From positions 18,306-82,305 of the forward strand of contig DAOTYF010000043.1 of assembly GCA_034434995.1 (NCBI GenBank): DNA of 64,000 bases. Reading direction: 5' to 3'. The stretch comes from Anaerolineae bacterium. Its GTDB lineage: Bacteria > Chloroflexota > Anaerolineae > Aggregatilineales > UBA3940. Of this stretch, positions 19,238-34,137 are shown piece by piece (position 1 is the first letter of the stretch; the number at the start of each line of letters is the position of its first letter). A program made the position numbers and the translations under genes. Below the pieces are notes generated by a model. The model made no database searches, was not told the DNA's origin, and was given only the letters and a program-made list of their open reading frames with translations.

Positions 19238-19240
19238 GAG

Positions 19241-20521: not shown

Positions 20522-20545
20522 CCGTTCGTATACCTATCCTTGTCG

Positions 20546-23092
20546 CTACCCGCCGTGCGGTAGTGTGCCAACCATAGCCTCAAGCAGCTTGATCGTCGCT
20601 TCTTTCGTCTCTGCCCCGCCCTCTCCGACTGGCCCGACGCAGGCAGGGCACCCTTCCTCGCAGGGGCAATCTCGCACCAGCTCCAGCGCCCCGCTCAACA
20701 ATTCATGATGCAGATCGTATAGTTGCGGGGCTAGCCCCAACCCGCCCGGAGCGTGATCGTAGATCGTAATGATCGGTGCTTTGGCGTGAGTCAAGCCCTG
20801 CTGTACAGCCACGCCAATGTCACCGGGCGAGCACATCAGTAATAATGCTGCCACATTCTGCAGCACGTCTGACAGACCGCTAAGCGCACTCCGCACTCCA
20901 CGCACTGCTTCAACAGACCTGTGGCAGGTTGAACACAGGGTAACCAGATTATCCAGACGGTTAGCCTCCCGGTAGTTCTCATTTTGGCCGGGCAGGTAAC
21001 CAAAGTCCCGGAAAGGGATCAGATGGTGAACATCGTGCTGCCGGCCATCGCGTTCAGGAGCGTTACAACGTGTACACCGATACCCATCGCGCGCACGCGC
21101 TCTGTCGCGCTGTTCATGCCAATTTGGGCCGTAGTTATTGGGGCGCAACAAAATGCTCTGCGCTTCAAGCTGGCTGGTCAGATCGTGAGTCAGGGCAACC
21201 CAGTAAGCCGTGGTTTCGAATTGCTGAGGTGGAAGGTCGATCTGCCCATAGCCAAGCGTTTCATGTGTATAACGTTTGACGATGCGATACCCGGTTACTT
21301 GCTGAGTCACCAGCACCCTGCCATGTGCTTTCAGACAATTCCCCGACGGCTTTGAAGCATATTCTTCAATCACCTCCACTTCGCTAGAAATGCTGGCATC
21401 GGTGTAGTAGTCCGCTTCGGTCTGACTGGCTCGGGCGGCTCCGTGCTCCCAGTCCAATTCATCAATTACAAATTGGCGACCCTCATGGAGATAGATTGCG
21501 CCTGTGTGGACAAGCCTTGGCGCACTCTGGCGATCCACCACACCGATGGCTTCCGGTGGGCTGCTAGTGTGATCTTGGATCACAATGGTGTCTGGGCCGG
21601 TCGTGCGCAGGTTCACGTCTGCCGCCGGATAAGCATCCGAAACCCAGCGGTAGGCATGACCGCTGCCATGAATCTCTCCGCCTTCAGCAAGCAGGAGTAG
21701 GATTTCCTCGGCCCCCTGGAAGCTTCCGAATGGTTCACCTGCAGTAAAGGGAAGCTCATAAGCTGCGCAACGCAGGTGATCGGCCAGAATCAGCAGGTTA
21801 TCTGGATTGATCAGGGCATGTTCAGGCGAGCGCTCGAACAGATAGCGGGGATGGGTGGCAACATACTGATCGAGGGGCGTGCCCGATGCTACCAGAATAC
21901 CTACGCAGAGTGTGGCGCGTCGCCCGGCTCGCCCAAACTGTTGCCAGGTGCTCGCAATCGTGCCAGGGTAGCCAGCCAGTATAGCCACCGCCAGTTCCCC
22001 TATGTCAATGCCCAACTCCAGCGCATTGGTGGCTACCACACCTCTTGCCAAGCCGTTACGTAGCTCTTCCTCGATCTTACGCCGTTCGAGGGGTAAATAG
22101 CCGCCTCGATAACCCCGAATGCTGGTTGGATCGCTACCTGCTTGCTCAACCTCGTCGCGGATATACCCTAGTAGGACTTCAGTAGCCAGGCGGGATCGCG
22201 CAAAGATAGCCGTTTGCACACCCTCAGCGACAAACCGTGAAGCGATCTTAGCAGCCTCCAGTGCATAACTACGACGCAGCCCCGTACGGGCATCCACCGT
22301 TGGAGGGTTGTACAAAACGATATGCGTTTCGCCACGAGGGGCACCGTCGTTGTCGATCAGGACAACAGGCGCTTCGATAAGCCGTTCGGCCAGTTCCAGT
22401 GGGTTGGCGATGGTGGCACTGGCGCAGAGGAAGATCGGGTCGCTGCCGTAGAAGCGGCATATCCGCCGCAACCGCCGGAGCACGTTAGCTATATGGCTGC
22501 CGAACACGCCCCGGTAGGTGTGCAGTTCATCCAACACAACCACGCGCAGGGTCTCAAAGAAGGTAGCCCACCGTGGATGATAAGGAAGGATGCTCAGATG
22601 AAGCATATCCGGGTTGGAGATGATCACTCCACCGGCCCGGCGAATCCGCGAACGATAGCTTCGCGGAGTATCACCGTCATACACGTTGAAGGGAATGGAT
22701 GTGTCCAGCTTCAACGCTCCAACAAGTGCGCTCAAGGAAGCTGCTTGATCCTGGGCCAGCGCTTTCGTAGGGTAAAGGTACAGCGCGCTAGCGCCTGGTT
22801 CGTTTAACATGAATTGGAGGGCAGGTAGGTGGTAGGTCAGCGATTTCCCCGAGGCGGTCCCGGTGACCAGTACTATGTTCTGCCCATTCAGAGCGGCTTC
22901 GATGGCGCGTGCCTGATGGATGTATAAAGGGGAATATCCGAGCGCACGGGTGGCCTCAATGAGCCTGCTATCAAGCGCGGCTGGGTACTCAGCATAGCGA
23001 GCGGCCCGGGCGGGTAGTCGTTCCCACGCGGTGACGTTTGCCATAAAGGCCGGGTCGTGTCGAAGCTGGTCAAGCAGGGCGGCCAGGTCCAT
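20546..23092 (-). CDS. DExH-box helicase of the MrfA/YprA (DUF1998) type with an inserted HNH nuclease motif
   Basis: Walker A TGTASGKS, DExH VVLDELH, and helicase-C motif FGRAGRR. The C-terminal Cys cluster DCPCEEGCPAC is DUF1998-like. HNH-like segment: DGYRCTRCN...HDVHHLIPF...NLVTLCSTCH. Confidence 0.85.
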   Translation of the reverse strand: MDLAALLDQLRHDPAFMANVTAWERLPARAARYAEYPAALDSRLIEATRALGYSPLYIHQARAIEAALNGQNIVLVTGTASGKSLTYHLPALQFMLNEPGASALYLYPTKALAQDQAASLSALVGALKLDTSIPFNVYDGDTPRSYRSRIRRAGGVIISNPDMLHLSILPYHPRWATFFETLRVVVLDELHTYRGVFGSHIANVLRRLRRICRFYGSDPIFLCASATIANPLELAERLIEAPVVLIDNDGAPRGETHIVLYNPPTVDARTGLRRSYALEAAKIASRFVAEGVQTAIFARSRLATEVLLGYIRDEVEQAGSDPTSIRGYRGGYLPLERRKIEEELRNGLARGVVATNALELGIDIGELAVAILAGYPGTIASTWQQFGRAGRRATLCVGILVASGTPLDQYVATHPRYLFERSPEHALINPDNLLILADHLRCAAYELPFTAGEPFGSFQGAEEILLLLAEGGEIHGSGHAYRWVSDAYPAADVNLRTTGPDTIVIQDHTSSPPEAIGVVDRQSAPRLVHTGAIYLHEGRQFVIDELDWEHGAARASQTEADYYTDASISSEVEVIEEYASKPSGNCLKAHGRVLVTQQVTGYRIVKRYTHETLGYGQIDLPPQQFETTAYWVALTHDLTSQLEAQSILLRPNNYGPNWHEQRDRARARDGYRCTRCNAPERDGRQHDVHHLIPFRDFGYLPGQNENYREANRLDNLVTLCSTCHRSVEAVRGVRSALSGLSDVLQNVAALLLMCSPGDIGVAVQQGLTHAKAPIITIYDHAPGGLGLAPQLYDLHHELLSGALELVRDCPCEEGCPACVGPVGEGGAETKEATIKLLEAMVGTLPHGG

Positions 23093-23127
23093 TTGCCGAT
23101 AGTATCGCTTTCAGAACGTTTGTTTGC

Positions 23128-23156
23128 AAGACAAGCCCCCGGCGGCCCGTTATAAT
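23128..23156 (+). promoter_or_regulatory. sigma70-type promoter (AAGACA-17 nt-TATAAT), probably giving a leaderless mRNA for the GT1 gene at 23164
   Basis: A perfect TATAAT lies at 23151-23156, with exactly 7 nt before the ATG at 23164. A -35-like AAGACA sits at 23128-23133 with a 17-nt spacer. No Shine-Dalgarno sequence is present. Confidence 0.45.
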
Positions 23157-23163
23157 CGCCCGC

Positions 23164-24303
23164 ATGAGTGTGCACACCCACGTTGCTCTCAATGCATACT
23201 TGCTGTCGGGAGAGGCTTCATATCGTAGCGCGGGCATTCATGGGTATATCTACAATACCCTGGCGAACTTATGTGAAGTTGACCCTAGCCTCGTTTTAAC
23301 TGTTCTGGTTGGATCAGGAACGCTGCCAGATAGGGGCAGATGGGATGTTCGGCGCTCTCGCTTTCTCGCTCATCGGCCTACTGTGCGTATCATGTGGGAA
23401 CAGTTGGTTGTGCCCTGGATGCTCCTCCGGCTTGATCCCGATCTCTTTCATGGGATGGCGTTTGCTGTGCCAGCGTTCTGGCCTGGGCCAAGTGTGGTCA
23501 CGATCTACGATCTGAGCTTCCTGCGTTACCCGGAGCACCTTGGGCGGGCGCGGCGTCTGTATCTCCAATGGATCACCCACCTTTCCGCGCGACGGGCGCG
23601 CCGGATCATCAGCATCTCCGAAAGTGGGAAGGCAGAAATCAATGCGCTGCTCCATGTTGCCCCGGATAAGATCGACGTTGCATTGCCGGGCGTCGCTGAG
23701 CACTTTAAATCCTTACCTCCTGAGCAGGTGGCCAAGTTTCGTGCCCGGCAGGGATTGCCAGAGCGCTTCATTCTGTATTTGGGCACACTGGAACCGCGCA
23801 AGAATCTGGACACCCTGCTGGTCGCCTATGCGCGGCTTCCGCAACGTGCGGAGGTCAAATTGGTGCTGGCAGGCGGGGAAGGCTGGGGGACGGATCGAAT
23901 CCTGGCCTTGATTGAATCCTTGGGGCTTAGGGAGGATGTGATCCTGCCTGGCTATATCGAGAATCGAATGCTCCCGATGTGGTACAATGCGGCAGAGTTG
24001 TTCGTCTATCCTTCCATGTATGAGGGATTCGGGCTACCGCTCCTCGAGGCGATGGCCTGCTGCGTTCCGGTCGTCGCCTCTAATGCGGCCTCTCTGCCGG
24101 AAGTAGTGGGATCGGACGGGGTGTTGCTTCCTGCCACCAACCCTGATGCCTGGACGGATGCTCTGGCCCATCTGTTGACGGACTCCTCTGCCCGTATGGC
24201 TCTGGGGCTTAGGGGGCAGGCCCGCGCAAAGAATTTCACCTGGACTAACACTGCCCGACAGACGGCCCTAGCCTATCACCGGGCGCTAAGTGATAGCACG
24301 TGA
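23164..24303 (+). CDS. glycosyltransferase family 1 (GT4-type)
   Basis: 379 aa. Motifs YLGTLEPRKN and YPSMYEGFGLPLLEAMACCVPVVASN are present. Confidence 0.9.
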   Translation: MSVHTHVALNAYLLSGEASYRSAGIHGYIYNTLANLCEVDPSLVLTVLVGSGTLPDRGRWDVRRSRFLAHRPTVRIMWEQLVVPWMLLRLDPDLFHGMAFAVPAFWPGPSVVTIYDLSFLRYPEHLGRARRLYLQWITHLSARRARRIISISESGKAEINALLHVAPDKIDVALPGVAEHFKSLPPEQVAKFRARQGLPERFILYLGTLEPRKNLDTLLVAYARLPQRAEVKLVLAGGEGWGTDRILALIESLGLREDVILPGYIENRMLPMWYNAAELFVYPSMYEGFGLPLLEAMACCVPVVASNAASLPEVVGSDGVLLPATNPDAWTDALAHLLTDSSARMALGLRGQARAKNFTWTNTARQTALAYHRALSDST

Positions 24304-25736
24304 TGCCGCATATGGTCAAGAATCAGGCGTCCCAGCCTCTAATCTTGGTGGCAGATATCGCCCTGATCAATGTGGCTTTCTTCCTCTCGTACATGGTGCG
24401 GTATGAGATGGGCATCCCCTATCCCGTCGATCCGCGCTATGACGCGCCCTTTTATCCCTCTTACATCCCAACGGCTGTACTGCTCACCTTGTTGTGCCTG
24501 ACAATGTACAGGATTGACGGCCTCTACGAGAGGAGGCGAGGGCGCCGCTGGTTGGACGAAACCTACCGCTTGGTCAGCGGGACGATGACCAGCATTGTCG
24601 TGATCATGGCGATTACTTTTTTCACCCAGCCCCTGGTATATTCGCGCGGTATGTTGGTGCTGGCGGGCTTGCTGATCGTGGCCTTGCTTGCAACTTCCCG
24701 CCTGGTGCAGCACTTTATCGAAGGGCAGCTCCGGCGGAGAGGTATTGGTGTGGAGCGGCTCCTGATCGTGGGCGCGGGTGAGGTTGGGCGGGCGGTTATG
24801 CGCAGTATCCTGGCTTCACCCCGGCTGGGCTACCAGATCGTGGGTTATGTTGATGATGATCCCACCAAAGGAGATGGTCATCTGGGTCGCTTTCAGGGGT
24901 TTGGTGGCCTTGACAAGCTAGCTGAAGTCATCCAGACGCAGAAGGTGGACGAAGTTATCGTGACCCTTCCCTGGATGTATCACCGCAAGATTATGCAGAT
25001 CGTGGCTGAGTGCGAGCGGGGTAAAGTCAGAGTCCGCGTGGTTCCAGATGTATTCCAGCAGAGGATGCATCGGGTTGATCTGGATAGCCTGCATGGGATC
25101 CCCCTGATCGGGCCAGGCCCCACCGAGTTGAGTTCAGGCGCTATGCTGGTCAAGCGTGCAATGGATTTGATATTGGTCTTTCTCGCCCTCCCCTTTGCGC
25201 TTCTGCTCTTTGTGCTGGTAGCGGTGCTCATTAAACTCGATTCGCCCGGCCCAGTTCTGTTCAAACAGCCACGTGTGGGGAAGGATGGCCGGGTGTTTGA
25301 CATGTATAAGTTCCGCACCATGATCGTTGGTGCAGAGAGAATGCAGGCCGAGCTGGCGGACCTGAACGAGGCAGATGGCCCTTTGTTCAAAATCCGGGAC
25401 GATCCGCGCCGGACGCGAGTCGGGCGGTTCTTGAGGCGGACCAGCATCGATGAACTACCACAACTGATCAATATCCTGAAGGGCGAGATGAGTTGGGTCG
25501 GACCACGCCCAGGAACGCCTGAGGAAGTGGCTCAATACGAACCCTGGCAACGAGAGCGGATTGTTGTGCGTCCTGGGGTGACCGGCCTATGGCAGGTGAG
25601 TGGTCGCAGCGACATCCCGTTTGATGAGATGATTCTACTGGATATTTTCTACATTGAGAATTGGTCCCTTGATCTCGACATTCGCATTCTGCTGCAAACT
25701 GTCCCCCGTGTCCTTTTTGGCACTGGAGCTTATTAA
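24300..25736 (+). CDS. polyprenyl-phosphate glycosylphosphotransferase, WbaP/EPS-type (bacterial sugar transferase)
   Basis: N-terminal TM helices. LLIVGAGEVGRAV is a CoA-binding-like domain. C-terminal region reads PGPVLFKQPRVGKDGRVFDMYKFRTM...DELPQLINILKGEMSWVGPRP. Confidence 0.9.
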   Translation: MMPHMVKNQASQPLILVADIALINVAFFLSYMVRYEMGIPYPVDPRYDAPFYPSYIPTAVLLTLLCLTMYRIDGLYERRRGRRWLDETYRLVSGTMTSIVVIMAITFFTQPLVYSRGMLVLAGLLIVALLATSRLVQHFIEGQLRRRGIGVERLLIVGAGEVGRAVMRSILASPRLGYQIVGYVDDDPTKGDGHLGRFQGFGGLDKLAEVIQTQKVDEVIVTLPWMYHRKIMQIVAECERGKVRVRVVPDVFQQRMHRVDLDSLHGIPLIGPGPTELSSGAMLVKRAMDLILVFLALPFALLLFVLVAVLIKLDSPGPVLFKQPRVGKDGRVFDMYKFRTMIVGAERMQAELADLNEADGPLFKIRDDPRRTRVGRFLRRTSIDELPQLINILKGEMSWVGPRPGTPEEVAQYEPWQRERIVVRPGVTGLWQVSGRSDIPFDEMILLDIFYIENWSLDLDIRILLQTVPRVLFGTGAY

Positions 25737-26984
25737 ATGACCCGTCCCTTCCGTCTCCACTCTGTGCTGGGATCGAGTTCGTCCTCGGCGCCTGCCAGGC
25801 TGATGCTCGATGTAGACGAATGTGTGCAAATGACCCATTTCCTCCGAGCGCTGGTTCAGACGCCCAGCCTCTCAACAGCAGAAGGGGCGGTAGCAGAATT
25901 GATCCGGCACGAGCTTCGGGCAGTGGGGATTCAGGACGTTCGTACCGACCGGGCGGGGAGCGTCATGGCGTTATTAGGCAATGGAGATGGGCCAACTCTG
26001 CTGCTGGATGCCCATATGGATACAGTAGCCCCAACTGGTGCGGCGTGGCCCTATGGGCCCTATACCGCGACCGTCAAGGATGGCTTCCTGTATGGCTTGG
26101 GCGCGTGTGACATGAAAGCATCCATAGCAGCCATGGTCTATGCCGCCAAACGCCTCATTGAGGCTCATGTCGAACTGCATGGCAGACTGGTGCTGGCATT
26201 TGTTGTTCAAGAAGAACCATGCGAGGGCTGTGCGCTCAAGATTTTGTTGGAGGAGCAGAATATACAACCCGACTGGGTGGTGCTCGCTGAACCAAGCGAT
26301 ATGACTATCAAACGCGGTCACCGGGGACGGGTGTTGTTTAAGGTAACAGTGCGGGGCCGAAGCAGTCATGCTTCCCGACCTGACCTTGGCCAAAATGCGA
26401 TTACGGCGGCAGCACGGCTGATCTTTGGTATTGACCTGCTTTCGGGAGGGCTGGCAAGCGATCCCTTTCTGGGGCCAGGAACTATTGCTGTGACTCACAT
26501 CGAAAGTCGGGCCGCGAGCGCAAACGCGATTCCAGACTTATGTACCTTTTATGTGGATCGCCGCCTGACTCTCGGTGAAACGGCCACTCGCGCGCAGACC
26601 CAGATTGAAACCGTTATCGAGCGCGAGGGTATTGATGCGACGGTGGAGGTAGTTGAATACAAGTCGGAGACCTATGCTGGGTACCCGCTGCAAGTGCGCG
26701 AATCGTTCAATCCCTGGGCGCTTGATCCCGATCACCCTCTGGTGGCCGCATTGAGCCGGGCAGCGCAGACAGTCATCGGTCAGCCACCTGCCATCGGCCA
26801 ATGGGCGTTTTCAACAGATGGTGTCTTCAGCATGGCAGAGGCCGGTATTCCAACAGTGGGGTTCGGGCCAGGCAACCCGGATCACGCCCATACAGTAGAC
26901 GAGCGCGTCTGTCTGGATGATGTGACGCGAGCTGCTCACATATATGCGTTGTTGGCTTCGAATTTGCTGGCGAAGCCCGCCTGA
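25737..26984 (+). CDS. M20 family metallopeptidase (ArgE/DapE-like deacylase)
   Basis: LLLDAHMDTVAP, GACDMKAS and VVQEEPCEG match M20 metal and catalytic motifs. The true start may be an internal ATG at 25803 or 25830. Confidence 0.8.
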   Translation: MTRPFRLHSVLGSSSSSAPARLMLDVDECVQMTHFLRALVQTPSLSTAEGAVAELIRHELRAVGIQDVRTDRAGSVMALLGNGDGPTLLLDAHMDTVAPTGAAWPYGPYTATVKDGFLYGLGACDMKASIAAMVYAAKRLIEAHVELHGRLVLAFVVQEEPCEGCALKILLEEQNIQPDWVVLAEPSDMTIKRGHRGRVLFKVTVRGRSSHASRPDLGQNAITAAARLIFGIDLLSGGLASDPFLGPGTIAVTHIESRAASANAIPDLCTFYVDRRLTLGETATRAQTQIETVIEREGIDATVEVVEYKSETYAGYPLQVRESFNPWALDPDHPLVAALSRAAQTVIGQPPAIGQWAFSTDGVFSMAEAGIPTVGFGPGNPDHAHTVDERVCLDDVTRAAHIYALLASNLLAKPA

Positions 26985-27019
26985 GGAGACTTGCTACGCA
27001 AGACCATACCTCGGATGGT

Positions 27020-27049
27020 TTGTGCCAGCTTTTCCCCGTACGGTATAAT
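27020..27049 (+). promoter_or_regulatory. possible promoter for the chlI-like gene
   Basis: Perfect TATAAT at 27044-27049. A weak -35 (TTGTGC) sits at 27020-27025 with an 18-nt spacer. Confidence 0.3.
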
Positions 27050-27107
27050 CCCCTCCCGTAAAACTATCGTGGTTGGCTCTTGAACATGACCGGCAAGTGA
27101 GCATGGC

Positions 27108-28217
27108 ATGTCTGTTGTGATCTTCCCTTTTACAGCTATCGTGGGCCAAGAGCGCATGAAGCGTGCGCTGGTCTTGAATGCCGTCTATCCACAGATCGGT
27201 GGTGTTTTGATTCGGGGCGAGCGAGGCACAGCTAAAAGCACTGCCGCGCGCGCTTTGGCGGCCCTTCTCCCTGAGATTGAGGTAGTAGCGGACTGCCGCT
27301 TTAGCTGCGATCCAGCCCACCCCGAAACATGGTGTGATGAATGTCGTGAGCGTAGGGAGAGGGGTGAGATGCTGCCGGTCGCGCGTCGCCGCATCCGGAT
27401 CGTCGATCTCCCGGTCAGCGCAACGGAAGATCGCGTGGTGGGCACGCTCGACATCGAGAAAGCCATCCAGTTAGGCCAGCGCCAATTTGATGCCGGTGTG
27501 CTGGCTGCCGCTAACAGAGGGATTCTCTACGTTGACGAAGTCAATCTGCTTGACGATCACGTGGTTGATCTGCTACTGGACTCCGCCGCAATGGGGGTGA
27601 ACGTCGTAGAGCGTGAGGGTATCAGCTTCACCCATCCGGCTCGTTTCATCCTGGTGGGCACAATGAACCCCGAGGAAGGAGACCTGCGCCCTCAGCTTCT
27701 AGACCGCTTCGCACTGGCGGTCGATGTGCGGGGCCTGCAAGACCCTGCTGAGCGAATGGCAGTGTTGGAACGCCACATTCAGTTTGAAGCGGATGCGATG
27801 GCTTTCCGTCAGGCATGGCTTCCAAGTGAGCAGCAGTTGGCGGATGAGATCGAGCGTGCCCGCCAGCTCGTTGAGTATGTAGCTTACACGCGCCAAGACC
27901 TTGCCACGATTGCCAACCTCACGTCGAGTCTGAAGGTGGATGGTCACCGAGCTGATCTGGTGATTCTAAAAGCCGCACGTGCTCATGCGGCCCTGGAAGG
28001 CCGCACCTCTATCACCGAGCGCGACATTCTGATGGCAGCCGAACTGGCCCTGCCGCATCGCATCCGGCGTGGCCCCTTCCAAGAGGCTCAGGCGAGTCTT
28101 CACGATCTCGAAGAACGAGTCGAGCAGGCTCGTAGCGATGCTGAGAATGCTGAGGCTTCGGAGCAGGAGCTGGCCGAGGAATCAACCCAGGTAAAAAAAA
28201 ACAGCGTGACGCGGTAG
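27108..28217 (+). CDS. chlI: AAA+ ATPase, magnesium chelatase subunit I (ChlI/BchI)-like
   Basis: FPFTAIVGQERMKRALVLNAV is the ChlI N-terminal signature. Walker A is GERGTAKST and Walker B is ILYVDEVNLL. The ORF ends 5 codons after an A9 run. Confidence 0.85.
   Translation: MSVVIFPFTAIVGQERMKRALVLNAVYPQIGGVLIRGERGTAKSTAARALAALLPEIEVVADCRFSCDPAHPETWCDECRERRERGEMLPVARRRIRIVDLPVSATEDRVVGTLDIEKAIQLGQRQFDAGVLAAANRGILYVDEVNLLDDHVVDLLLDSAAMGVNVVEREGISFTHPARFILVGTMNPEEGDLRPQLLDRFALAVDVRGLQDPAERMAVLERHIQFEADAMAFRQAWLPSEQQLADEIERARQLVEYVAYTRQDLATIANLTSSLKVDGHRADLVILKAARAHAALEGRTSITERDILMAAELALPHRIRRGPFQEAQASLHDLEERVEQARSDAENAEASEQELAEESTQVKKNSVTR
28193..28201 (+). promoter_or_regulatory. A9 slippery tract (A_AAA_AAA_AAC in the zero frame): candidate -1 frameshift / transcriptional slippage site
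   Basis: Nine consecutive A residues. The zero frame reads gtA AAA AAA AAC and hits TAG at 28215. The -1 frame reads AAA CAG CGT GAC GCG GTA GAC GAG GAA GAA... with no stop before the ATG at 28250. Confidence 0.5.
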
Positions 28218-28249
28218 ACGAGGAAGAAGGGGAGGAGCAACAACCTGAG

Positions 28250-29164
28250 ATGGGGCCAACTCAGCCCCATCGTCAGGATGTGTTCCCTAGTCAGGAGTCG
28301 CACTGGTGGGAGGGAGGGCAAAAAGTTCAACCCGGCGAGGAGTTCAAGCTGGGACGACGATTAGATACTCCTCTAGATAAACTCACACGGCGACAGAGTG
28401 GACGCCGCAGCCGTACCCGGACCGACCGCAAGCGAGGGCGCTACATTCAGGCCCGTCCTGCTAACGGGGATACCTCTGATGTTGCCTTTGACGCCACCAT
28501 TCGCGCTGCTGCACCCTATCAAATCGAGCGGGATAAGGGCGATCTAGCCTTTGCAGTACGTAAGCAAGACTTGCAACGCAAGGTCCGCGTCAAGCGGCAA
28601 GCCAATCTTGTTCTGTTCGTGGTTGATGCGTCATGGAGCATGGCTGTTGCCGAGCGCATGACAGCCACCAAAGGTGCTATTGTCTCTCTGCTGACCGACG
28701 CATATCAGCGTCGGGACCGCGTTGGGCTGGTCGTCTTTCAGAAGAATCGTGCCCATTTGGTGCTTCCGCCAACCAATTCAGTGCAATTGGCCCAGCGCGC
28801 CTTAGCTGACATCCCCGTGGGGGGCAAGACCCCTCTTTCCGCCGGCCTGCTGCTTGCTTACCAGGTGTTTTTACAGGACAGATTATCCCACCCCGATGCA
28901 CTGCCCTTGATGATCATCCTGACTGATGGGGCAGGCAATGTCTCAATGACGAATCTGCCTCCTCAGGATGAAGCTCATCGCATCGCGAATCGCGTCCATG
29001 CAGAAGGCATCCGGTCCGTGGTGATTAATATGGAACATGCCAGCTTTGACCAGGGATTGGCACAAAGGCTGGCCGAGGAATTAGGCGGCCTCTGCTTCAC
29101 GCTGGCAGAACTACGTGCCGATCTGCTATACCAGACCGTCCGCGAGCAGATGGCAAATCCCTAA
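28250..29164 (+). CDS. VWA (von Willebrand A) domain protein, ChlD/BchD C-terminal-half-like
   Basis: RGRYIQARP...DVAFDATIRAAAPYQ is the ChlD mid-region signature. LFVVDASWSM is the MIDAS motif DxSxS. TDGAGN is present. Confidence 0.8.
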   Translation: MGPTQPHRQDVFPSQESHWWEGGQKVQPGEEFKLGRRLDTPLDKLTRRQSGRRSRTRTDRKRGRYIQARPANGDTSDVAFDATIRAAAPYQIERDKGDLAFAVRKQDLQRKVRVKRQANLVLFVVDASWSMAVAERMTATKGAIVSLLTDAYQRRDRVGLVVFQKNRAHLVLPPTNSVQLAQRALADIPVGGKTPLSAGLLLAYQVFLQDRLSHPDALPLMIILTDGAGNVSMTNLPPQDEAHRIANRVHAEGIRSVVINMEHASFDQGLAQRLAEELGGLCFTLAELRADLLYQTVREQMANP

Positions 29165-29189
29165 GAGTTTCAGGGAAGTTGCTTCCGCG

Positions 29190-31427
29190 TTATTCGGCGA
29201 TGTCTTCTACGAAGTCGAATAGCTCGGGATCGTACCAGTCGAGCGGATAGTCTAGCACGCGGGTGTTGTAGTAGCGCTCGATGATCCTTCGGAAGATTGG
29301 CGCTGCCACACTAGATCCCTGACCGCCATTCTCCACCATCACAACAACGGCGATCTCGGGGTTGTCATAGGGTGCGTAACCCGCAAACCAGGCGATTGGT
29401 GGCACACCTGGTTGGGATACCTGCGCCGTACCCGTCTTGCCTGCCACTGGGATCGTCATGCTGCCGAGGCGATACTCGGCTGTCCCGAAGCCGATGGCAG
29501 AGGCTACGCCGCGCATACCATCCCGTATCGCCTGAAGTTGCTCGTCGGTGAGCGATAATCGCCCCACTGTCCGAGGCTCAAACACCACCGAGGGATTTTC
29601 CCCAATCAGGCCGATATGGTCGACCAGATTGGGCTGGTAGATGGTTCCCCCGTTTGCCACTGCTGAGACCGCTACTGCCATCTGGAGCGGTGTTACCAGG
29701 ACATCACCCTGACCAATAGCCATGTTCACACTGTCATTGAGCGTCCATTCTTGACCGCGCTCTTGCCATAGCCAGTCCGGATCGGGAATCAGCCCGGCTT
29801 CTTCTTCGATCTGAATGCCCGTCTCACGACCGAAACCGTATTCACGCGCATAGTTCGGTAGGATGTTGAAGTCCTGCTGGCCGGTGATCAACCCCACGTG
29901 ATAGAAGTAAGGGTTGCAGGAACCTGTGAGCGCCTGGACCAGCGTGATTGTTCCGTGCCCCCCCTCTTTCCAGTCAAGTCTTTGGCTTGCTTGCCCCAGT
30001 TCTGACCAGATCCCGGTGCAGGTATATTCCGTTTCGGGTTGGAATAGGCCACTGCCCAGAGCAGCAGAGATGGTGACGATCTTGAACAATGAACCGGGGG
30101 GATATTCTCCTTGAGTAGCGCGGTTGAAGAAGGGGTGGCGGGGGTTGTTGAACAGATCACTAAGGTAGTTATCTGTCAGAAAGGGGTGGTTGTTATAGGG
30201 GTTAAGAACATTCGGGTCAAAGTAAGGAAAACTCGCCATGGCTAGGACATTGCCCGTGTTGACGTCCATGACCACCACGGCTGCGCCACCAGCCATGGGG
30301 GCCCAGGTGTTCGCTCCAGCGCGATAGGCTTCCTCTATCGCGTCCTGAACGATCGCCTGAAGATTGCGATCGAGCGTTGTGTAGATGCTCTGTGCAGGCT
30401 GAGCATCGCGCCGGGCGATCTCGCCGGAATACTGGCCGCTGGGCGTGTAAGCGCTCAGCGTACCACCACGCATCCCCGCCAGAAAGCTTTCTCCCCATAG
30501 CTCAAGCCCGCTGAGGCCGACGATCTCGTCACCCTGGTAGCCTCGCGCCTGGTAGGTTTCAAGTTGATCAGCGGGGATGAAACCGGTGTAGCCCAGCACA
30601 TGTGGCGCAAGCAGGTTGAAATAGCGGCGGCCTGTCTTATCGGTGAACCGCAGGGCAGGGTAGCTGCTGAGTGCATTCCAGTAAGCCTGCACCGTCTCGG
30701 AATCAGCGTCTCCAACCGCCTGTACCCAGTCATCGGGGTAGCCCTGGTAGTTCTGACGAATCTGATCTGGCGGAGTGCGTAGCACCTCGCTGAGCAGGTT
30801 CAGCATGTCGTCTTCCCAGTCTGGACTGACCTCACCCGGCACGACGCTGATTGTAACAGCAGAGGCATTGGCCGAAACAAGCCATAATCCATTGCGGTCA
30901 TAGATGTTGGCGCGCGCAGGTATCTCGACTTCAAGCTGGATCGTGTTACCGCCGGCTAGCTGGGGAAAGATGAGCGCAGGTGTCCAGACGATTCCCCAGC
31001 GATCGTTTGCCAGGACCAAGTTCATGGTGAGGTCCTGTTCAATTGGCCCCAGAACCTGTGTGTTGTAAGTCGCGTGGAATGCAATCTGGGCTGTCGTTCC
31101 GGTTGTGTCTGGAAGTGAGGATAGTGGCTCAGCCCGCACATCAATCAGCGTCATGGCAGTTGCTGTACTGGTATAGGTGCTCGTGAACTCATCGAGAGTA
31201 TATTCACTCTGGCTGTTAGCGGAGAGCAGACTATACATACCCTCGTAGTTGCCTATCCTCCAGGCATCCAGGAATGCTTGAGCCACACCATCAGGGGCGC
31301 CAAGGTTTGGGGTGGGGGTTGGCCCATTCGGAACACCGGGTTCGCCTGTGCTGCCGGAGGGGGGGAGCAGGCCGCAAGCGCTAAGCGTCACAGTGATCGC
31401 CGCAATAATAGCAAAGCGTTGTCTCAT
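29190..31427 (-). CDS. class B penicillin-binding protein (PBP2/FtsI-type transpeptidase), lipoprotein
   Basis: Start set at ATG 31427, giving MRQRFAIIAAITVTLSAC with an L-S-A-C lipobox; the ORF-track GTG is at 31448. Motifs SLFK (SxxK), SCN (SxN) and KTGTA are present. Confidence 0.85.
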   Translation of the reverse strand: MRQRFAIIAAITVTLSACGLLPPSGSTGEPGVPNGPTPTPNLGAPDGVAQAFLDAWRIGNYEGMYSLLSANSQSEYTLDEFTSTYTSTATAMTLIDVRAEPLSSLPDTTGTTAQIAFHATYNTQVLGPIEQDLTMNLVLANDRWGIVWTPALIFPQLAGGNTIQLEVEIPARANIYDRNGLWLVSANASAVTISVVPGEVSPDWEDDMLNLLSEVLRTPPDQIRQNYQGYPDDWVQAVGDADSETVQAYWNALSSYPALRFTDKTGRRYFNLLAPHVLGYTGFIPADQLETYQARGYQGDEIVGLSGLELWGESFLAGMRGGTLSAYTPSGQYSGEIARRDAQPAQSIYTTLDRNLQAIVQDAIEEAYRAGANTWAPMAGGAAVVVMDVNTGNVLAMASFPYFDPNVLNPYNNHPFLTDNYLSDLFNNPRHPFFNRATQGEYPPGSLFKIVTISAALGSGLFQPETEYTCTGIWSELGQASQRLDWKEGGHGTITLVQALTGSCNPYFYHVGLITGQQDFNILPNYAREYGFGRETGIQIEEEAGLIPDPDWLWQERGQEWTLNDSVNMAIGQGDVLVTPLQMAVAVSAVANGGTIYQPNLVDHIGLIGENPSVVFEPRTVGRLSLTDEQLQAIRDGMRGVASAIGFGTAEYRLGSMTIPVAGKTGTAQVSQPGVPPIAWFAGYAPYDNPEIAVVVMVENGGQGSSVAAPIFRRIIERYYNTRVLDYPLDWYDPELFDFVEDIAE

Positions 31428-31616
31428 GTTGTCATTTTCCATCCGCACACAATAGCAGGGGCCGGCGAGTTGTAACTACCGGCCCCTCACAGTCTCGGTG
31501 TGCTCAAATTATAGCTTGAGCCGCAACTTACAACAATGAACGCGAGGAATGGCAGTGATATAGAAATCCAAGCACAGGTTTTAGCCCCGCTTTCATCTTT
31601 TCTCGCCGGGCCAATG

Positions 31617-31646
31617 GTTGGCCCCAATAAGGGCGCATGTTAAAAT
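31617..31646 (+). promoter_or_regulatory. possible promoter for the epimerase gene at 31682
   Basis: TTGGCC at 31617-31622, an 18-nt spacer, and TAAAAT at 31641-31646. A GGAGA RBS precedes ATG 31682. Confidence 0.3.
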
Positions 31647-31681
31647 CTCATCCTCAGTTCGCCCGTCAATGGAGAAATGCC

Positions 31682-32752
31682 ATGCCCCACCTCCTGGTGA
31701 CCGGCGGTGCCGGTTTCATCGGAAGCCACACAGTACGCCGATTCCTGGATCGCGGTTGGAGCGTCACCGCGCTGGATAACCTCTCCCGTGTTGGCTCGGA
31801 TTTCAATCTCGGCTGGATACGCAGCCATCCAGGCAGTGACCGCCTGACGTTCGTACAAGCGGATGTGCGCGATTATGAAGCGCTTGCGCCTTGGGTTGCC
31901 CGAGCGGATGTGGTGCTTCATGCGGCGGGCCAGACTGCTGTCACATCCTCGGTAGCCGATCCGCGCCATGACTTGGAAGCGAATGTGCTGGGGACATTCA
32001 ACGTGCTGGAGGCAGCCCGTCAGAGCCGCACCCAGACCCAGAATCCTCTGCTTATCTACACCTCAACTAACAAGGTTTACGGTGGCATGGAGGATGTGGG
32101 GGTCAAGTTGGTGGACAGGCGTTATCGATATACCGATCTGCCGGATGGCGTCGCGGAAAGCCAGCTCCTTGACTTTCATTCTCCCTACGGCTGCTCAAAA
32201 GGAGCAGGCGACCAGTATATGCGTGACTACGCCCGCATCTATGGGCTACGAACGGTTGTATTCCGGCAATCGTGCATCTATGGGACATGGCAGTTCGGCA
32301 TTGAGGATCAGGGATGGGTGGCACACTTCACCATCTCGGCGGTGCTTGACCAGCCGCTGACCATCTACGGTGATGGCATGCAGGTACGCGATGTGCTGTA
32401 CATTGACGATCTCCTCGACGCTTATGAAGCAGTGATTGCGAAGCCAGAGGTGGCCACCGGGCAGATTTTTAACATTGGCGGGGGGGTAGAGCGGGCAATT
32501 TCACTCCTCGACTTGGTTGAGATGCTAGAAGCGTTACGTGGTAGCCCGATGCAGATCGCCTATGATGGCTGGCGGCCAGGGGATCAGCGGGTGTATGTCA
32601 GCCACATTGGGAAGGCCGAACGCCTGCTGGGCTGGCGACCTCGTGTGACGGCGGAAGAAGGGGTGCGCCGTCTCTATGGGTGGGCACAGGGGCATCGGGA
32701 CCTTCTGATCGCTGCGCGCACGCAGCTCTTGGAGAAGGTTGCTCACAACTGA
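31682..32752 (+). CDS. NAD-dependent epimerase (extended SDR; CDP-paratose/tyvelose 2-epimerase-like)
   Basis: MPHLLVTGGAGFIGSH at the N-terminus. SPYGCSKGAGDQYMRDYARIYGL contains YxxxK. ATG 31682 has a GGAGA RBS, whereas ATG 31637 overlaps the putative -10. Confidence 0.8.
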   Translation: MPHLLVTGGAGFIGSHTVRRFLDRGWSVTALDNLSRVGSDFNLGWIRSHPGSDRLTFVQADVRDYEALAPWVARADVVLHAAGQTAVTSSVADPRHDLEANVLGTFNVLEAARQSRTQTQNPLLIYTSTNKVYGGMEDVGVKLVDRRYRYTDLPDGVAESQLLDFHSPYGCSKGAGDQYMRDYARIYGLRTVVFRQSCIYGTWQFGIEDQGWVAHFTISAVLDQPLTIYGDGMQVRDVLYIDDLLDAYEAVIAKPEVATGQIFNIGGGVERAISLLDLVEMLEALRGSPMQIAYDGWRPGDQRVYVSHIGKAERLLGWRPRVTAEEGVRRLYGWAQGHRDLLIAARTQLLEKVAHN

Positions 32753-32760
32753 AGTGTATA

Positions 32761-34107
32761 ATGGCTGAGCCTGCTGCGATTCTGACCATCGAGGCTGCCA
32801 GCCCTGGTGGGGTCCCCGCTCTGGTGGATGCCATCTATGTCCTGATGAAAACATGGGGGTATGAGCCGACGGTTTATCGGGCGCAGTTCGCGGAGGGGAA
32901 TTTATCTCTCCCTCAACGCATTGCAACCACCCTTCGGCAATGGAAGGCCCGTCGGGTCGAGGAACGGGGGCTACCCACCGTACTAGTCCCCGCCCCACCG
33001 GTTCCACTGTGGCTGTTTTACGCCGTGCCGCATTTTCTGTTGGGCAATCTGCTCGGAGCATATGAATGCATCTTTGTGGCATCAGGGAGCGCGCATGTGG
33101 CGCTGCCGTTGGCGTTGCGAGGTATTCCCTATGTCCTCTGGATCGCCACGCTCTACGAGGACGAGCTACGCGCGAAAATGAGCGCGGGGGATAAGTGGGC
33201 GCAGCGCGTTCTGAACAGCCCAACTTGGCCGATCCTGCAGGCGCAGGAACGTTGGGTGCTGAACAAGGCAGCCCGTATCATGGCTCTCAGCCCGCACACT
33301 GCCGCCCGCATCCGGGAATGGTTGCCTAACGTTGCCGATCGCGTTGAGACCGTCTTATATCCGGTCGACACGACGCGCTTCCACCCGCACCACGAAGCCC
33401 ATTCCGTGGCCGCTGAGGGAGAATACCTGTTATTGGCAGCGCGGATCACCGATCCTCGTAAGAATGTGCCGCTACTTTTGCGAGCCTTCGCGCTCGTTAA
33501 GCAACAGCGACCCCACCTGCGCTTGGTGCTGGTTGGGGAAGCTCCCGACGATCATCTTCTTTCGTTGGTGGCTGCTCTCTCTCTCGAGGAGGCGGTTATC
33601 TTCCGGGGGGTTGTGCCCCCCGATGAACTGCTCCGGTTATATCAGGGCGCAGCGCTGTTCGTCCTCCCATCCGCGCAAGAGGGTCTGGGGATCGTTGTGC
33701 TGGAGGCCCTGGCGTGTGGGACACCGGTCGTCACGCTGGCCTCCGGCGGCCCGGAGGGGATAGTTATTGATGGCCTCACTGGACGTGTGGTTGTTGAGGT
33801 GGATGATCCCGCGGCGTTGGCTCAGGGCATCCTCGATCTGCTAGATGACCCGGATCGACCTGCGATGCGCGCACGGTGTGCAGCCTTTGCCCAAGAGCAC
33901 TTTGCCTATCCCCTGATCGCAGAGAAGCTGCGTGCAGCCTATGAGGCAGTGCGGAACGCGCCACGTGGTCTATCGAGGATCGGTCAAGTCATCACCGCAG
34001 TCTGGGTCATGTTTGTGCTGGCCACTTATGTTCTGCGCCAGATGACGCTTCACTGGGCATCCATCCAACAGCGGATCATCGATCCGCTGCTCGGCGGCGT
34101 TCCATGA
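32761..34107 (+). CDS. glycosyltransferase family 1 (GT4-type) with C-terminal hydrophobic segment
   Basis: Start trimmed to ATG 32761. LPSAQEGLGIVVLEALACGTPVVTLASGG is present. The C-terminal segment IGQVITAVWVMFVLATYVL is hydrophobic. Confidence 0.85.
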   Translation: MAEPAAILTIEAASPGGVPALVDAIYVLMKTWGYEPTVYRAQFAEGNLSLPQRIATTLRQWKARRVEERGLPTVLVPAPPVPLWLFYAVPHFLLGNLLGAYECIFVASGSAHVALPLALRGIPYVLWIATLYEDELRAKMSAGDKWAQRVLNSPTWPILQAQERWVLNKAARIMALSPHTAARIREWLPNVADRVETVLYPVDTTRFHPHHEAHSVAAEGEYLLLAARITDPRKNVPLLLRAFALVKQQRPHLRLVLVGEAPDDHLLSLVAALSLEEAVIFRGVVPPDELLRLYQGAALFVLPSAQEGLGIVVLEALACGTPVVTLASGGPEGIVIDGLTGRVVVEVDDPAALAQGILDLLDDPDRPAMRARCAAFAQEHFAYPLIAEKLRAAYEAVRNAPRGLSRIGQVITAVWVMFVLATYVLRQMTLHWASIQQRIIDPLLGGVP

Positions 34108-34137
34108 ACAACTGTTAGCTGAAAGTGCGGGAAATCC

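Follow-up and report, generated by a model that had tools for sequence, protein, structure and literature searches.

Anatomy of the locus

The region at 27108–29164 of the window (i.e., the whole stretch of DNA analyzed here, 64,000 nt long) contains two overlapping reading frames on the forward strand, a ChlI-like AAA+ ATPase ORF in the zero frame and a VWA-domain ORF read in the −1 frame; a run of nine adenines (A9) lies in their overlap (Table 1). Across this run the zero frame reads CAG GTA AAA AAA AAC AGC GTG ACG CGG TAG. The run begins at codon position 3, with both A_AAA_AAA (28193–28199) and A_AAA_AAC (28196–28202) in zero-frame register, and the short product read in this frame ends with ...VKKNSVTR. 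The −1 frame reads K Q R D A V D E E E G E E Q Q P E M G P T Q, is stop-free to 29164, and gives a conceptual product of 685 aa. A preliminary description of this DNA had placed the A9 run at 28193–28201 in the A_AAA_AAA register, with 369 aa for ORF1 and about 685 aa for the −1 product; all of these coordinates are correct, as is its statement that the −1 frame runs without a stop into the VWA ORF (open from 28154 to 29164).

Table 1. Features of the locus in window coordinates, with the basis for each
Feature	Position	Strand	Basis
Whole gene, probably recoded (fs-chlD type, "putative cobaltochelatase" family)	27108..29164	+	Two overlapping frames; TIGR02442 match
Zero-frame ORF1, 369 aa, ChlI-like AAA+ ATPase	27108..28217	+	Pfam and PDB matches
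A9 slippery run, putative shift site	28193..28201	+	Sequence; homologous runs in relatives
Zero-frame stop TAG, 13 nt past the run, terminating the short product	28215..28217	+	Sequence
Overlap with both frames open, within which a shift must fall	28154..28217	+	−1 frame open from 28154
−1-frame continuation: acidic/Pro-rich linker, AAPxQ region, VWA (integrin-I-like) domain	28199..29164	+	Pfam, PDB
GGAGGAG (28231–28237) and ATG 28250, possible internal start of a 304-aa VWA protein	28231..28252	+	Sequence
Predicted RNA hairpin, beginning 29 nt past the run	28231..28288	+	Folding
Promoter-like GTGCCA-16-TATAAT, ~58 nt 5' of the ORF1 start	27022..27049	+	Consensus scan; weak evidence

The short and long forms have 364 residues in common, after which the short form adds NSVTR before its stop codon. 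The sole stretch unique to the shifted product is the 17-aa KQRDAVDEEEGEEQQPE. The preliminary description had also counted RGRYI...AAAPYQ among the features that appear only after the shift; this motif lies downstream of ATG 28250 and is thus present in a stand-alone ORF2 as well, so that only the 17-aa stretch keeps this status. The predicted −1 product, a fusion of ~75 kDa, has the junction peptide ...STQVKKKQRDAVDEEE... (VKKKQRDAVDEEE, VKKKQRDAVDEEEGEEQQPEMGPTQPHR). Automatic annotation pipelines divide the locus into an orphan "ChlI-like ATPase" of 369 aa and a "VWA protein" of 304 aa.

The A9 tract is the only A-run of at least 7 nt in the 64-kb window, where 0.10 A9 tracts are expected by chance and at least one occurred in 8 of 100 shuffles (AAA makes up 36% of the Lys codons in the window). 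By itself A9 is therefore mildly unusual, and it is the position exactly in the ORF overlap, together with conservation, that carries the weight. The consensus scan that yielded the upstream promoter-like site returned this one site against 0.8 expected and gave none between ORF1 and ORF2, and no terminator was seen on the + strand inside 27108–29164. The hairpin downstream of the run is predicted to be stable (minimum free energy −36.3 kcal/mol, z = −3.8, with 0 of 200 shuffles folding as well), but it starts too far from the run for a canonical frameshift stimulator, and any role is putative.

Protein family and domain architecture

ORF1 matches the Pfam families Mg_chelatase, AAA_5, and AAA_lid_2, and its translation contains a Walker A motif (GERGTAKS), a Walker B motif (YVDEVNLLDD), and RPQLLDRF. 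Its residues 4–330 match ChlI/BchI structures in the PDB (8osf, 6l8d, and 1g8p) with E values of 1e-91 to 1e-102. ORF2 matches VWA and VWA_2, with PF26791 (AAPxQ) precomputed for it, and the C-terminal domain of BchD (PDB 2x31_A) aligns with residues 500–642 of the fusion. The fusion scores 788.7 bits against the NCBIfam model TIGR02442 ("putative cobaltochelatase"; cutoff 779.45) and covers profile positions 1–640 of 641, whereas ORF1 alone (506.9) and ORF2 alone (270.9) both fall under this cutoff. The best 120 database homologues of the fusion are all single ORFs of 665–736 aa, with 65–77% identity and 97–100% coverage, and in them KKK is near-universal at the junction while the linker is otherwise variable.

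The architecture resembles that of the BchI/BchD and ChlI/ChlD motor subunits, which likewise have an AAA+ module and whose BchD C-terminal domain aligns with the VWA part. The D-type order in BchD/ChlD, from the AAA+ module through an acidic linker to the VWA domain, is also found here, and the −1-frame continuation has the layout of the C-terminal half of ChlD. In contrast to these systems, both I- and D-type products would come from one gene at this locus, and the scores fall below the equivalog cutoffs (420.7 bits for ORF1 against 466.95 for TIGR02030, BchI-ChlI; 424.5 bits against 499.55 for TIGR02031, BchD-ChlD). A further difference is that the H/CobN partner of those systems was not found for this gene in the 64-kb window searched.

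Conservation of the split and of the A-run

The arrangement was compared with that in 67 close Anaerolineae-type relatives whose N-module is at least 62% identical (range 62–82%). The two parts are split in the −1 direction in 48 of them, split in the +1 direction in one, and in frame in 18, counts that do not represent independent events as the relatives often belong to related sub-lineages. An A7–A11 run occupies the homologous position in 62 of the 67, and 15 of the 18 in-frame relatives still carry one. Among the 48 −1-split relatives, the shift site is A9 in 28, A10 in 12, A8 in four, A7 in three, and C_CCA_AAA in one. The preliminary description had suggested looking among orthologues for the A-run with the −1 arrangement, and had named orthologues lacking the run and having −1-frame stops between the ORFs as evidence against recoding; most relatives keep the former, and the −1 frame is open in the −1-split genes.

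Stop codons follow the run closely. In the 47 −1-configured relatives with an A-run, the zero-frame stop follows the run at a median distance of 4 nt (maximum 53 nt), and in all −1-split genes examined the open −1 frame extends upstream into the run. In some relatives, for instance two in which the downstream frame opens only 2 nt into the run (L062) or 3 nt before it (L051) and the zero-frame stop lies 1–6 nt past the run, the overlap shrinks to the run itself, and the shift site is pinned to it. Judging from these junctions, the shift site and its direction are conserved among orthologues, as expected of members of the fs-chlD class discussed below. In the in-frame relatives it is the −1 frame that is closed early, with a stop at a median of 6 nt past the run compared to 53 nt at control positions (p = 2e-6), and the short product therefore appears, from this codon pattern, to be selected there too. 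The frame state has flipped at least seven times on the tree of the clade with the run kept, which also fits relaxed or DNA-level switching. The closest in-frame relatives have A9 (L083), A10 (L084), and A10 (L086) at this position.

A probable further member of the fs-chlD class

For the Mg-chelatase gene family, −1 recoding has been tested experimentally (PMC3711429, PMC9227772, PMC5009743). Antonov et al. (2013) measured reporter frameshifting of 63%, 40%, and 10% for Mg-chelatase-family cassettes with A11, A9, and A7, respectively (PMC3711429), Kuznetsov et al. (2022) described fs-chlD genes in Anaerolineae (PMC9227772), and the review of Atkins et al. (2016) covers chelatase recoding (PMC5009743). 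The fs-chlD class has been reported in Chloroflexi, including Herpetosiphon and Anaerolineae (PMC9227772, PMC3711429). As in the window gene, fs-chlD genes combine a ChlI-like ORF with a downstream VWA ORF in the −1 frame, carry an A_AAA_AAR or poly-A shift site in the overlap, and have single-ORF fused homologues; their short and long products are the small and the medium subunit, respectively. The published A9 cassette A_AAA_AAA_AA, which gave the 40% in reporters, has phasing identical to that of the window gene (PMC3711429). With no CobN/ChlH gene nearby, the window gene corresponds to the orphan genotype that Kuznetsov et al. call "stage 1" (PMC9227772) rather than to a CobN-linked one. 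It also appears to differ from published fs-chlD genes in lacking a close-range downstream stimulatory structure, its predicted hairpin beginning 29 nt past the run.

The ORF order and overlap, the in-register A-run, and the homology of the fusion to single-ORF ChlD-type proteins thus all match the fs-chlD class. We consider it likely (probability of roughly 0.85) that 27108–29164 constitutes one recoded gene with two products, which belongs to the ChlD-like "putative cobaltochelatase" family and to this published class. The earlier proposal that a −1 shift, or the insertion of one A, lets one gene supply both ChlI-type and ChlD-type proteins is supported by the 48 of 67 relatives, the TIGR02442 match of the fusion, and the literature. 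The preliminary description was also right to caution that the case would add an instance and not a new principle, as the recoding principle is already published (PMC3711429, PMC9227772, PMC5009743).

The sequence and the comparisons establish the layout of the locus, the conservation of both the split and the A-run, and the family to which the fusion belongs. For the source organism we infer the shift itself, its efficiency, the slip mechanism, the assembly of the products, and their substrate, along the following lines. One mRNA would be translated from ATG 27108, and most ribosomes would pass the A9 run in the zero frame and halt at TAG 28215 to yield the 369-aa ChlI-like AAA+ ATPase. A fraction would enter the −1 frame within the run and go on to 29164, producing a 685-aa ChlD-like protein with the identical AAA+ module followed by the acidic linker and the VWA domain. 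The −1 frame could be reached either by tandem ribosomal slippage on the in-register A_AAA_AAA or by RNA polymerase adding one extra A, and either route would give the identical junction peptide. By analogy with the BchI/BchD complex, the short and long products may assemble into a mixed AAA+ motor.

A comparable solution is known from dnaX, where E. coli uses ribosomal −1 frameshifting at A_AAA_AAG and Thermus thermophilus uses transcriptional slippage at A9 (PMC3711429). Like the window gene, dnaX makes two proteins (tau and gamma) with a common AAA+ N-terminal module by slippage on a lysine-codon A-run; both of its products join one complex, and its orthologues differ in configuration and mechanism (PMC3711429). 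The protein families are functionally unrelated, and the arrangements are reversed: dnaX of E. coli and Thermus yields its long form by default and a truncated one by slipping, whereas in the window gene the short form would be the default and the slip would extend. It is the in-frame relatives of the window gene that resemble the dnaX arrangement. The locus adds one more well-supported case in which slippage on a lysine-codon run fixes the proportion of two AAA+ subunits. Annotation should treat ORF1 and ORF2 together, as a single recoded gene.

Ribosomal or transcriptional slippage as possible routes

The register of the run bears on how the −1 frame would be entered. Across the relatives' junctions, register is constrained only for short runs: the A7 runs (3/3) are in the only phase that gives X_XXY_YYZ, and the A8 runs (4/4) are in an allowed phase. 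All 12 A10 runs share phase 1 and have a G after them, which places A_AAA_AAG in register, and in one relative (L157) the run is replaced by an in-register C_CCA_AAA, while the A9 runs are spread over all three phases (7, 13, and 8). We lean slightly towards ribosomal −1 frameshifting as the conserved and selected route, with transcriptional slippage likely contributing at A9.

A purely programmed transcriptional realignment, in which the polymerase adds one A and ribosomes decode normally, would give the same two products, and we regard it as possible, though short of even odds. It would account for A9–A10 tracts in 40 of the 47 −1-configured run-bearing relatives, longer than the 7-nt ribosomal heptamer, for A9 runs in all three phases, for an efficiency that climbs with run length (10/40/63% for A7/A9/A11; PMC3711429), for the lack of conserved downstream structure beside the A9/A10 forms, and for the tolerance of both in-frame and split configurations. 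RNA-polymerase slippage accounts for the modal A9–A10 length, the variable A9 phase, and the length-dependent efficiency no less well than ribosomal slippage does. Genes with programmed transcriptional realignment, such as T. thermophilus dnaX and IS630 transposases, are expected to have a homopolymeric A/T tract no shorter than about 9 nt where the frames meet, and the window gene has A9 there. In contrast, orthologues in both +1 and −1 configurations, a further mark of such realignment (PMC3711429), are nearly lacking among the relatives (48 −1 against one +1), and a direction of 48:1 indicates ribosomal frameshifting by the criterion of the same study (PMC3711429). Moreover, polymerase slippage would not be efficient on A7, A8, and C_CCA_AAA, which lack the length or the kind of sequence for it and yet are in ribosomal register, and the A10 runs are always phased A_AAA_AAG. 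As its in-frame and split forms alike retain the run and the early stops, the clade provides a natural series in which the two kinds of slippage could be told apart.

Candidate stimulators were considered on both sides of the run. Folding of the 90 nt after the run in 28 loci gave no general signal, and a downstream stimulator was dropped as a defining part of the cassette. No conserved downstream stimulator was found in the A9/A10 forms (mean z = −0.6), and hairpins 5–8 nt downstream occur only in short-run (A7/A8) relatives. For a five-sequence subclade, RNAalifold returned a weak consensus with a positive (i.e., unfavourable) covariation term and hence no covariation support. An upstream SD-like stimulator as in dnaX was not conserved when the junction contexts were inspected by eye.

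Separate genes, phase variation, and assembly error

The locus could alternatively consist of two ordinary adjacent genes, a ChlI-like ATPase ending at TAG 28215 and a VWA protein starting at ATG 28250, with no recoding, and we consider this improbable. Gene callers do give ORFs of 369 and 304 aa, chlI and chlD are separate genes in many organisms (PMC9227772), and, as the preliminary description pointed out, GGAGGAG lies 12 nt upstream of ATG 28250, so that stand-alone initiation of the VWA protein is possible in the window gene. Among the 48 −1-split genes (47 relatives and the window), however, such a start is, from the linker sequences, not conserved: in 19 the stretch from the run to the conserved WWEGG motif contains neither ATG nor GTG nor TTG, and a start with an SD-like element is present in only seven. 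In the window gene itself, both the GGAGGAG and the ATG are predicted to be buried in the stable hairpin at 28231–28288, and the spacing (12–14 nt) is long. Separate genes would also leave no reason for a conserved A-run at the junction. The −1 frame reaches back into the run in every −1-split gene examined, and the TIGR02442 cutoff is reached by the fusion and by neither half.

It is more doubtful still that the locus undergoes DNA-level phase variation, in which replication slippage would toggle between fused (ON) and split (OFF or short-only) states with no slippage of ribosome or RNA polymerase. The frame state has changed at least seven times with the run kept, in-frame and split forms are closely related (the window and L083), and poly-A tracts can drive such switching (PMC3711429). 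Against this, all three assemblies of the species read A9, random indels would yield +1 splits about as often as −1 splits and not 48:1, and a cytoplasmic ATPase is presumably not a typical contingency locus. The early −1-frame stops in the in-frame forms (p = 2e-6) and the heptamer register of the short runs also argue for selection for slippage during expression.

Five contigs on record encode exactly the 369-aa ORF1 product, and two loci returned from different samples (L081 and L082) both read A9, with 4 mismatches to the window in 7110 positions and 2 in 5941, respectively. The same A9 in two independent metagenome assemblies means that it is not an assembly error, and we reject the sequencing miscount (a true A10) that the preliminary description had raised. 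Although homopolymers are error-prone, the closest in-frame relatives have A9–A10 at the same spot (L083, L084, and L086), and the best 120 protein matches are all single ORFs, it is highly implausible that a miscounted plain fused chlD or a pseudogene created by a recent 1-nt deletion explains the locus, given the A9 in two further independent assemblies of near-identical strains, a −1 split common to 48 of 67 relatives at 62–82% identity with both halves intact and conserved, and a zero-frame stop so soon after the run (median 4 nt), which is unexpected under random error or decay.

Partner, substrate, and gene neighbourhood

No CobN/ChlH homologue was found in the 64-kb window, in line with what the preliminary description had stated for a cobN/chlH-like large subunit, or within 6 kb of any of 32 close relatives, while a CobN homologue lies beside 20 of 43 distant relatives. 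CobN-dependent (aerobic-type) cobalt chelatases have a CobN large-subunit gene and a B12 pathway in their genome, often adjacent, and no such CobN gene accompanies this locus in the regions searched. Antonov, in 2020, is said to have treated fs-chlD-type recoding in the CobN-linked cobalt chelatase.

Tentatively, the A-run cassette might be a two-product device in either frame, forming an I/D pair without CobN/ChlH that has a function other than the insertion of metal into tetrapyrroles. As part of the same tentative reading, the clade would alternate between genes that make the short form by default and the long one by slip and genes in which these roles are exchanged, with the run and nearby out-of-frame stops kept. 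If this reading is true, the locus would encode an AAA+/VWA machine that serves something other than tetrapyrrole metal insertion.

The neighbours in the window are polysaccharide and cell-wall genes. ORF clustering of the 6-kb flanks of 32 loci gave no conserved operon partner, its output being confined to antisense shadow ORFs and one 443-aa family. This family occurs in the flanks of 10 of the 32 loci and does not occur in the window. Three in-frame relatives each have a different gene context, and only L083 has the PBP gene that lies downstream in the window.

An A9 run probably joins two chelatase-like reading frames

The ChlI-like ORF1 and its A9 run (see table) are arranged such that the run starts at codon position 3, which places both A_AAA_AAA (28193–28199) and A_AAA_AAC in zero-frame register. 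From 28154 on, no stop interrupts the -1 frame, which reads KQRDAVDEEEGEEQQPEMGPTQ... and runs through the VWA ORF called from ATG 28250 (ORF2) to its end at 29162–29164. On re-reading the sequence, we found the position and phasing of the run, ORF1 and the open -1 frame all as described in the preliminary description. A -1 shift within A9 yields a product of 685 aa, while the short product has 369 aa, with 364 residues common to both. The A9 run by itself is only mildly unusual because 0.10 such runs are expected by chance in 64 kb. AAA makes up only 36% of the Lys codons across the window's genes. The window's other long homopolymer is a G9.

Features in and around the chelatase-like gene (window positions unless a locus is named)
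Feature	Position	Strand	Remarks
A9 run	28193–28201	+	sole A-run of at least 7 nt in the window
ORF1 (zero frame)	27108–28217	+	3′ end ...CAG GTA AAA AAA AAC AGC GTG ACG CGG TAG
Predicted hairpin	28231–28288		-36.3 kcal/mol, z = -3.8; starts 29 nt after the A-run
Promoter-like site	27022–27049		upstream of ORF1
M20 peptidase gene			upstream neighbour
Class-B penicillin-binding protein (PBP) gene			downstream neighbour, convergent
Asparagine-synthase paralogues	17288–19237 and 34138–36021		
DEAD-box helicase, 848 aa	20546–23092	-	C-terminal HNH nuclease and MrfA-type Zn-binding (MZB) domain
G7 and G9 runs	57043–57049 and 57073–57081		intergenic, directly upstream of minus-strand ORF 56180–57040
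~443-aa ORF, example in a relative's locus (L053)	4565–5893 of L053	-	

Pfam domains were Mg_chelatase, AAA_5 and AAA_lid_2 in ORF1, and VWA and VWA_2 in ORF2. The conceptual -1 fusion scored 788.7 bits against the NCBIfam model TIGR02442 ("putative cobaltochelatase"; curated cutoff 779.45 bits) over profile positions 1–640 of 641, whereas the separate halves (ORF1, 506.9 bits; ORF2, 270.9 bits) both fell under this cutoff; the fusion was under the NCBIfam equivalog cutoffs for BchI-ChlI and for BchD-ChlD. Residues 4–330 align with solved ChlI/BchI structures (8osf, 6l8d, 1g8p), and fusion residues 500–642 with the BchD C-terminal domain (2x31). The best 120 database homologues of the fusion were all single proteins (665–736 aa, 65–77% identity), with named sources in Chloroflexota, Anaerolineae or Thermoflexus, and their alignment has KKK at the exact junction position in nearly all, surrounded by a highly variable linker.

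Conservation of the split among relatives

The exact ORF1 product is recorded on five contigs, and A9 was present in both retrieved loci carrying it (Logan SRR5216251, with 4 mismatches to the window over 7110 positions, and JGI 3300022548, with 2 over 5941). We then compared relatives drawn from one genome per species plus metagenome contigs, with AAA+ and VWA frames assigned by tblastn. Among 67 close relatives, defined by 62% or higher identity in the AAA+ module and including related lineages, 48 had the same -1 configuration, at A9 (28), A10 (12), A8 (4), A7 (3) and one C_CCA_AAA site, such that this tblastn comparison, suggested earlier, recovered the -1 arrangement at an A-run in 47 of the 67. 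A further 18 were in-frame, with A7–A11 at the same spot in 15, the run lost in 2 and A47 in one contig, and one had a +1 configuration. Zero-frame reading in the -1 forms ends soon after the run, at a stop a median of 4 nt 3′ of it. In some relatives, the downstream frame is not open until the run is reached (L062, 2 nt into it; L051, 3 nt before it), so a shift there is possible solely within the run. With split and A-run shared across close relatives, the -1 interpretation proposed earlier is supported.

Several individual loci deserve mention. The -1 form without an A-run, L157 (metagenome contig Ga0105097_10000408), has ACC CCC CCA AAA GCA TAA in its linker, ~100 nt past the end of the AAA+ match at locus position 2493; this combines a C7 tract with an in-register C_CCA_AAA heptamer directly 5′ of the zero-frame stop. 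L065 (uncultured Chloroflexia MAG MFD02979.bin.1.10), the sole relative with VWA in +1 relative to AAA+, still has A9 at the junction (7073–7081); either a misassembly or a genuine +1 / minus-one-A arrangement could account for it. The 47-nt poly-A at the homologous junction of L101 (contig SWCC01016996.1, about 80–126) is probably an assembly artefact, or else runaway expansion of the slippery run. A small in-frame sub-lineage (L002 and L087) has lost both A-run/KKK and WWEGG and has a different linker; its sequences suggest a natural control set in which recoding was lost.

Candidate mechanisms of the proposed frame change

The long product would arise by a ribosomal -1 slip on the in-register A_AAA_AAA within A9, or by RNA polymerase slippage inserting one A on the run; sequence analysis is unable to separate the two because both yield the same protein. 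Ribosomal frameshifting is favoured here as the conserved mechanism, with a transcriptional contribution at A9 probable. Such a contribution would fit the modal A9–A10 lengths (40 of 47 run-bearing -1 relatives), which exceed what a heptamer needs, the spread of A9 runs over all three phases (7, 13, 8), the absence of conserved downstream structure from A9/A10 forms (mean z = -0.6), and the rise of efficiency with run length, reporter constructs having given up to 63% frameshifting (A7 10%, A9 40%, A11 63%; Antonov et al. 2013, PMC3711429). In favour of a ribosomal slip, direction is 48:1 for -1, a bias used as the criterion for ribosomal frameshifting over transcriptional realignment (PMC3711429). 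On the same side, every short run keeps heptamer register (A7 phase 2, 3/3; A8 phase 1, 4/4), each of the 12 A10 runs has phase 1 and a G as its next base, giving A_AAA_AAG, and L157 uses C_CCA_AAA; hairpins lie 5–8 nt after the run at the A7/A8 loci L035, L037, L061 and L066 (z = -1.9 to -2.4).

The VWA part may also be separately initiated at ATG 28250, adding some VWA-only protein. The preliminary description had raised this, and a GGAGGAG does end 12 nt upstream of that ATG. But of 48 -1-split genes scanned for starts (the window and 47 relatives), 19 lack any ATG, GTG or TTG in the stretch from the run to the conserved WWEGG motif, and a start accompanied by an SD-like element occurs in only 7; independent initiation is thus not the conserved way of expressing the C-terminal half. 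In the window, the SD-like element and ATG 28250 also lie inside the predicted stable hairpin, whose 5′ arm is purine-rich and 3′ arm pyrimidine-rich, and which could mask the internal start or be a distant stimulator. Purine/pyrimidine-biased stems are mentioned for chelatase frameshift genes (Atkins et al. 2016 review, PMC5009743). We found no promoter-like site between ORF1 and ORF2 and no plus-strand terminator within the 27108–29164 gene. Finally, a miscount of A9 is ruled out for practical purposes by its presence in independent assemblies and the -1 split in 48 of 67 relatives, as is a pseudogene by the conserved split, early zero-frame stop and recurrent A9.

Frame switching across the clade

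In in-frame relatives, the median distance to the first -1-frame stop is 6 nt from the run and 53 nt from control codon boundaries within these genes (Mann-Whitney p = 2e-6); for the +1 frame, the medians are 26 and 61 nt (p = 0.006). By Fitch parsimony, the frame state changed at least 7 times over a neighbour-joining tree built from the AAA+ module; among the window's nearest relatives are L018 and L116, both with the -1 split, and L083, which is in frame with an A9. These data suggest that both configurations would make both proteins, with default and slipped product swapped. Because distant in-frame relatives (L012, L013, L056, L006 and L115; 55–60% identity) carry A8–A10 runs in the linker with -1-frame stops 0–27 nt after the run, the A-run cassette may reach well beyond Anaerolineae. 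This group comprises Chloroflexaceae, Methanolliviera, Thermodesulfobacteriota and other MAG/metagenome homologues, and L013 adjoins a CobN gene.

Known recoding genes and gene neighbourhood

Chelatase frameshift recoding was reportedly also treated in an earlier publication, Antonov 2020. [quoted passage not shown] 2013, PMC3711429), a review section covers the family and its site A_AAA_AAR (Atkins et al. 2016, PMC5009743), and species with -1 frameshift chlD genes (fs-chlD) include Anaerolinea, Ornatilinea, Longilinea, Levilinea and Brevefilum (Kuznetsov et al. 2022, PMC9227772). The window gene shares the testable defining features of fs-chlD except for CobN association, the sole one lacking; its predicted hairpin, 29 nt after the run, appears too distant for a close-range stimulator. 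Its proposed operation resembles that of dnaX tau/gamma, to which it is functionally unrelated. The finding is real and, as had been anticipated, adds one more gene to a recoding family already published; what novelty remains is the cassette's apparent independence of frame, together with the partner-less genotype.

The surrounding region (17288–36021) is of cell-envelope/polysaccharide character, holding the two asparagine-synthase paralogues, two GT4 glycosyltransferases, a Bac_transf sugar transferase, the class-B PBP and an NAD-dependent epimerase/dehydratase family gene, with no tetrapyrrole genes. A homologue search bore out the reported absence of a CobN/ChlH-like large subunit from the 64-kb window, and none occurred in flanks of up to 6 kb around the gene in 32 close relatives, whereas among 43 distant in-frame relatives, 20 have CobN adjacent (Dehalococcoidia, archaea, Streptomyces). 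This context appears to match the orphan "stage 1" genotype of some Anaerolineae, whose function was called unclear (Kuznetsov et al. 2022, PMC9227772), and "cobaltochelatase" is here a family name denoting a predicted activity only. No consistently adjacent gene was found in the close clade. A ~443-aa ORF family, missing from the window, sits upstream of the chelatase-like gene in divergent orientation in 10 of the 32 close relatives.
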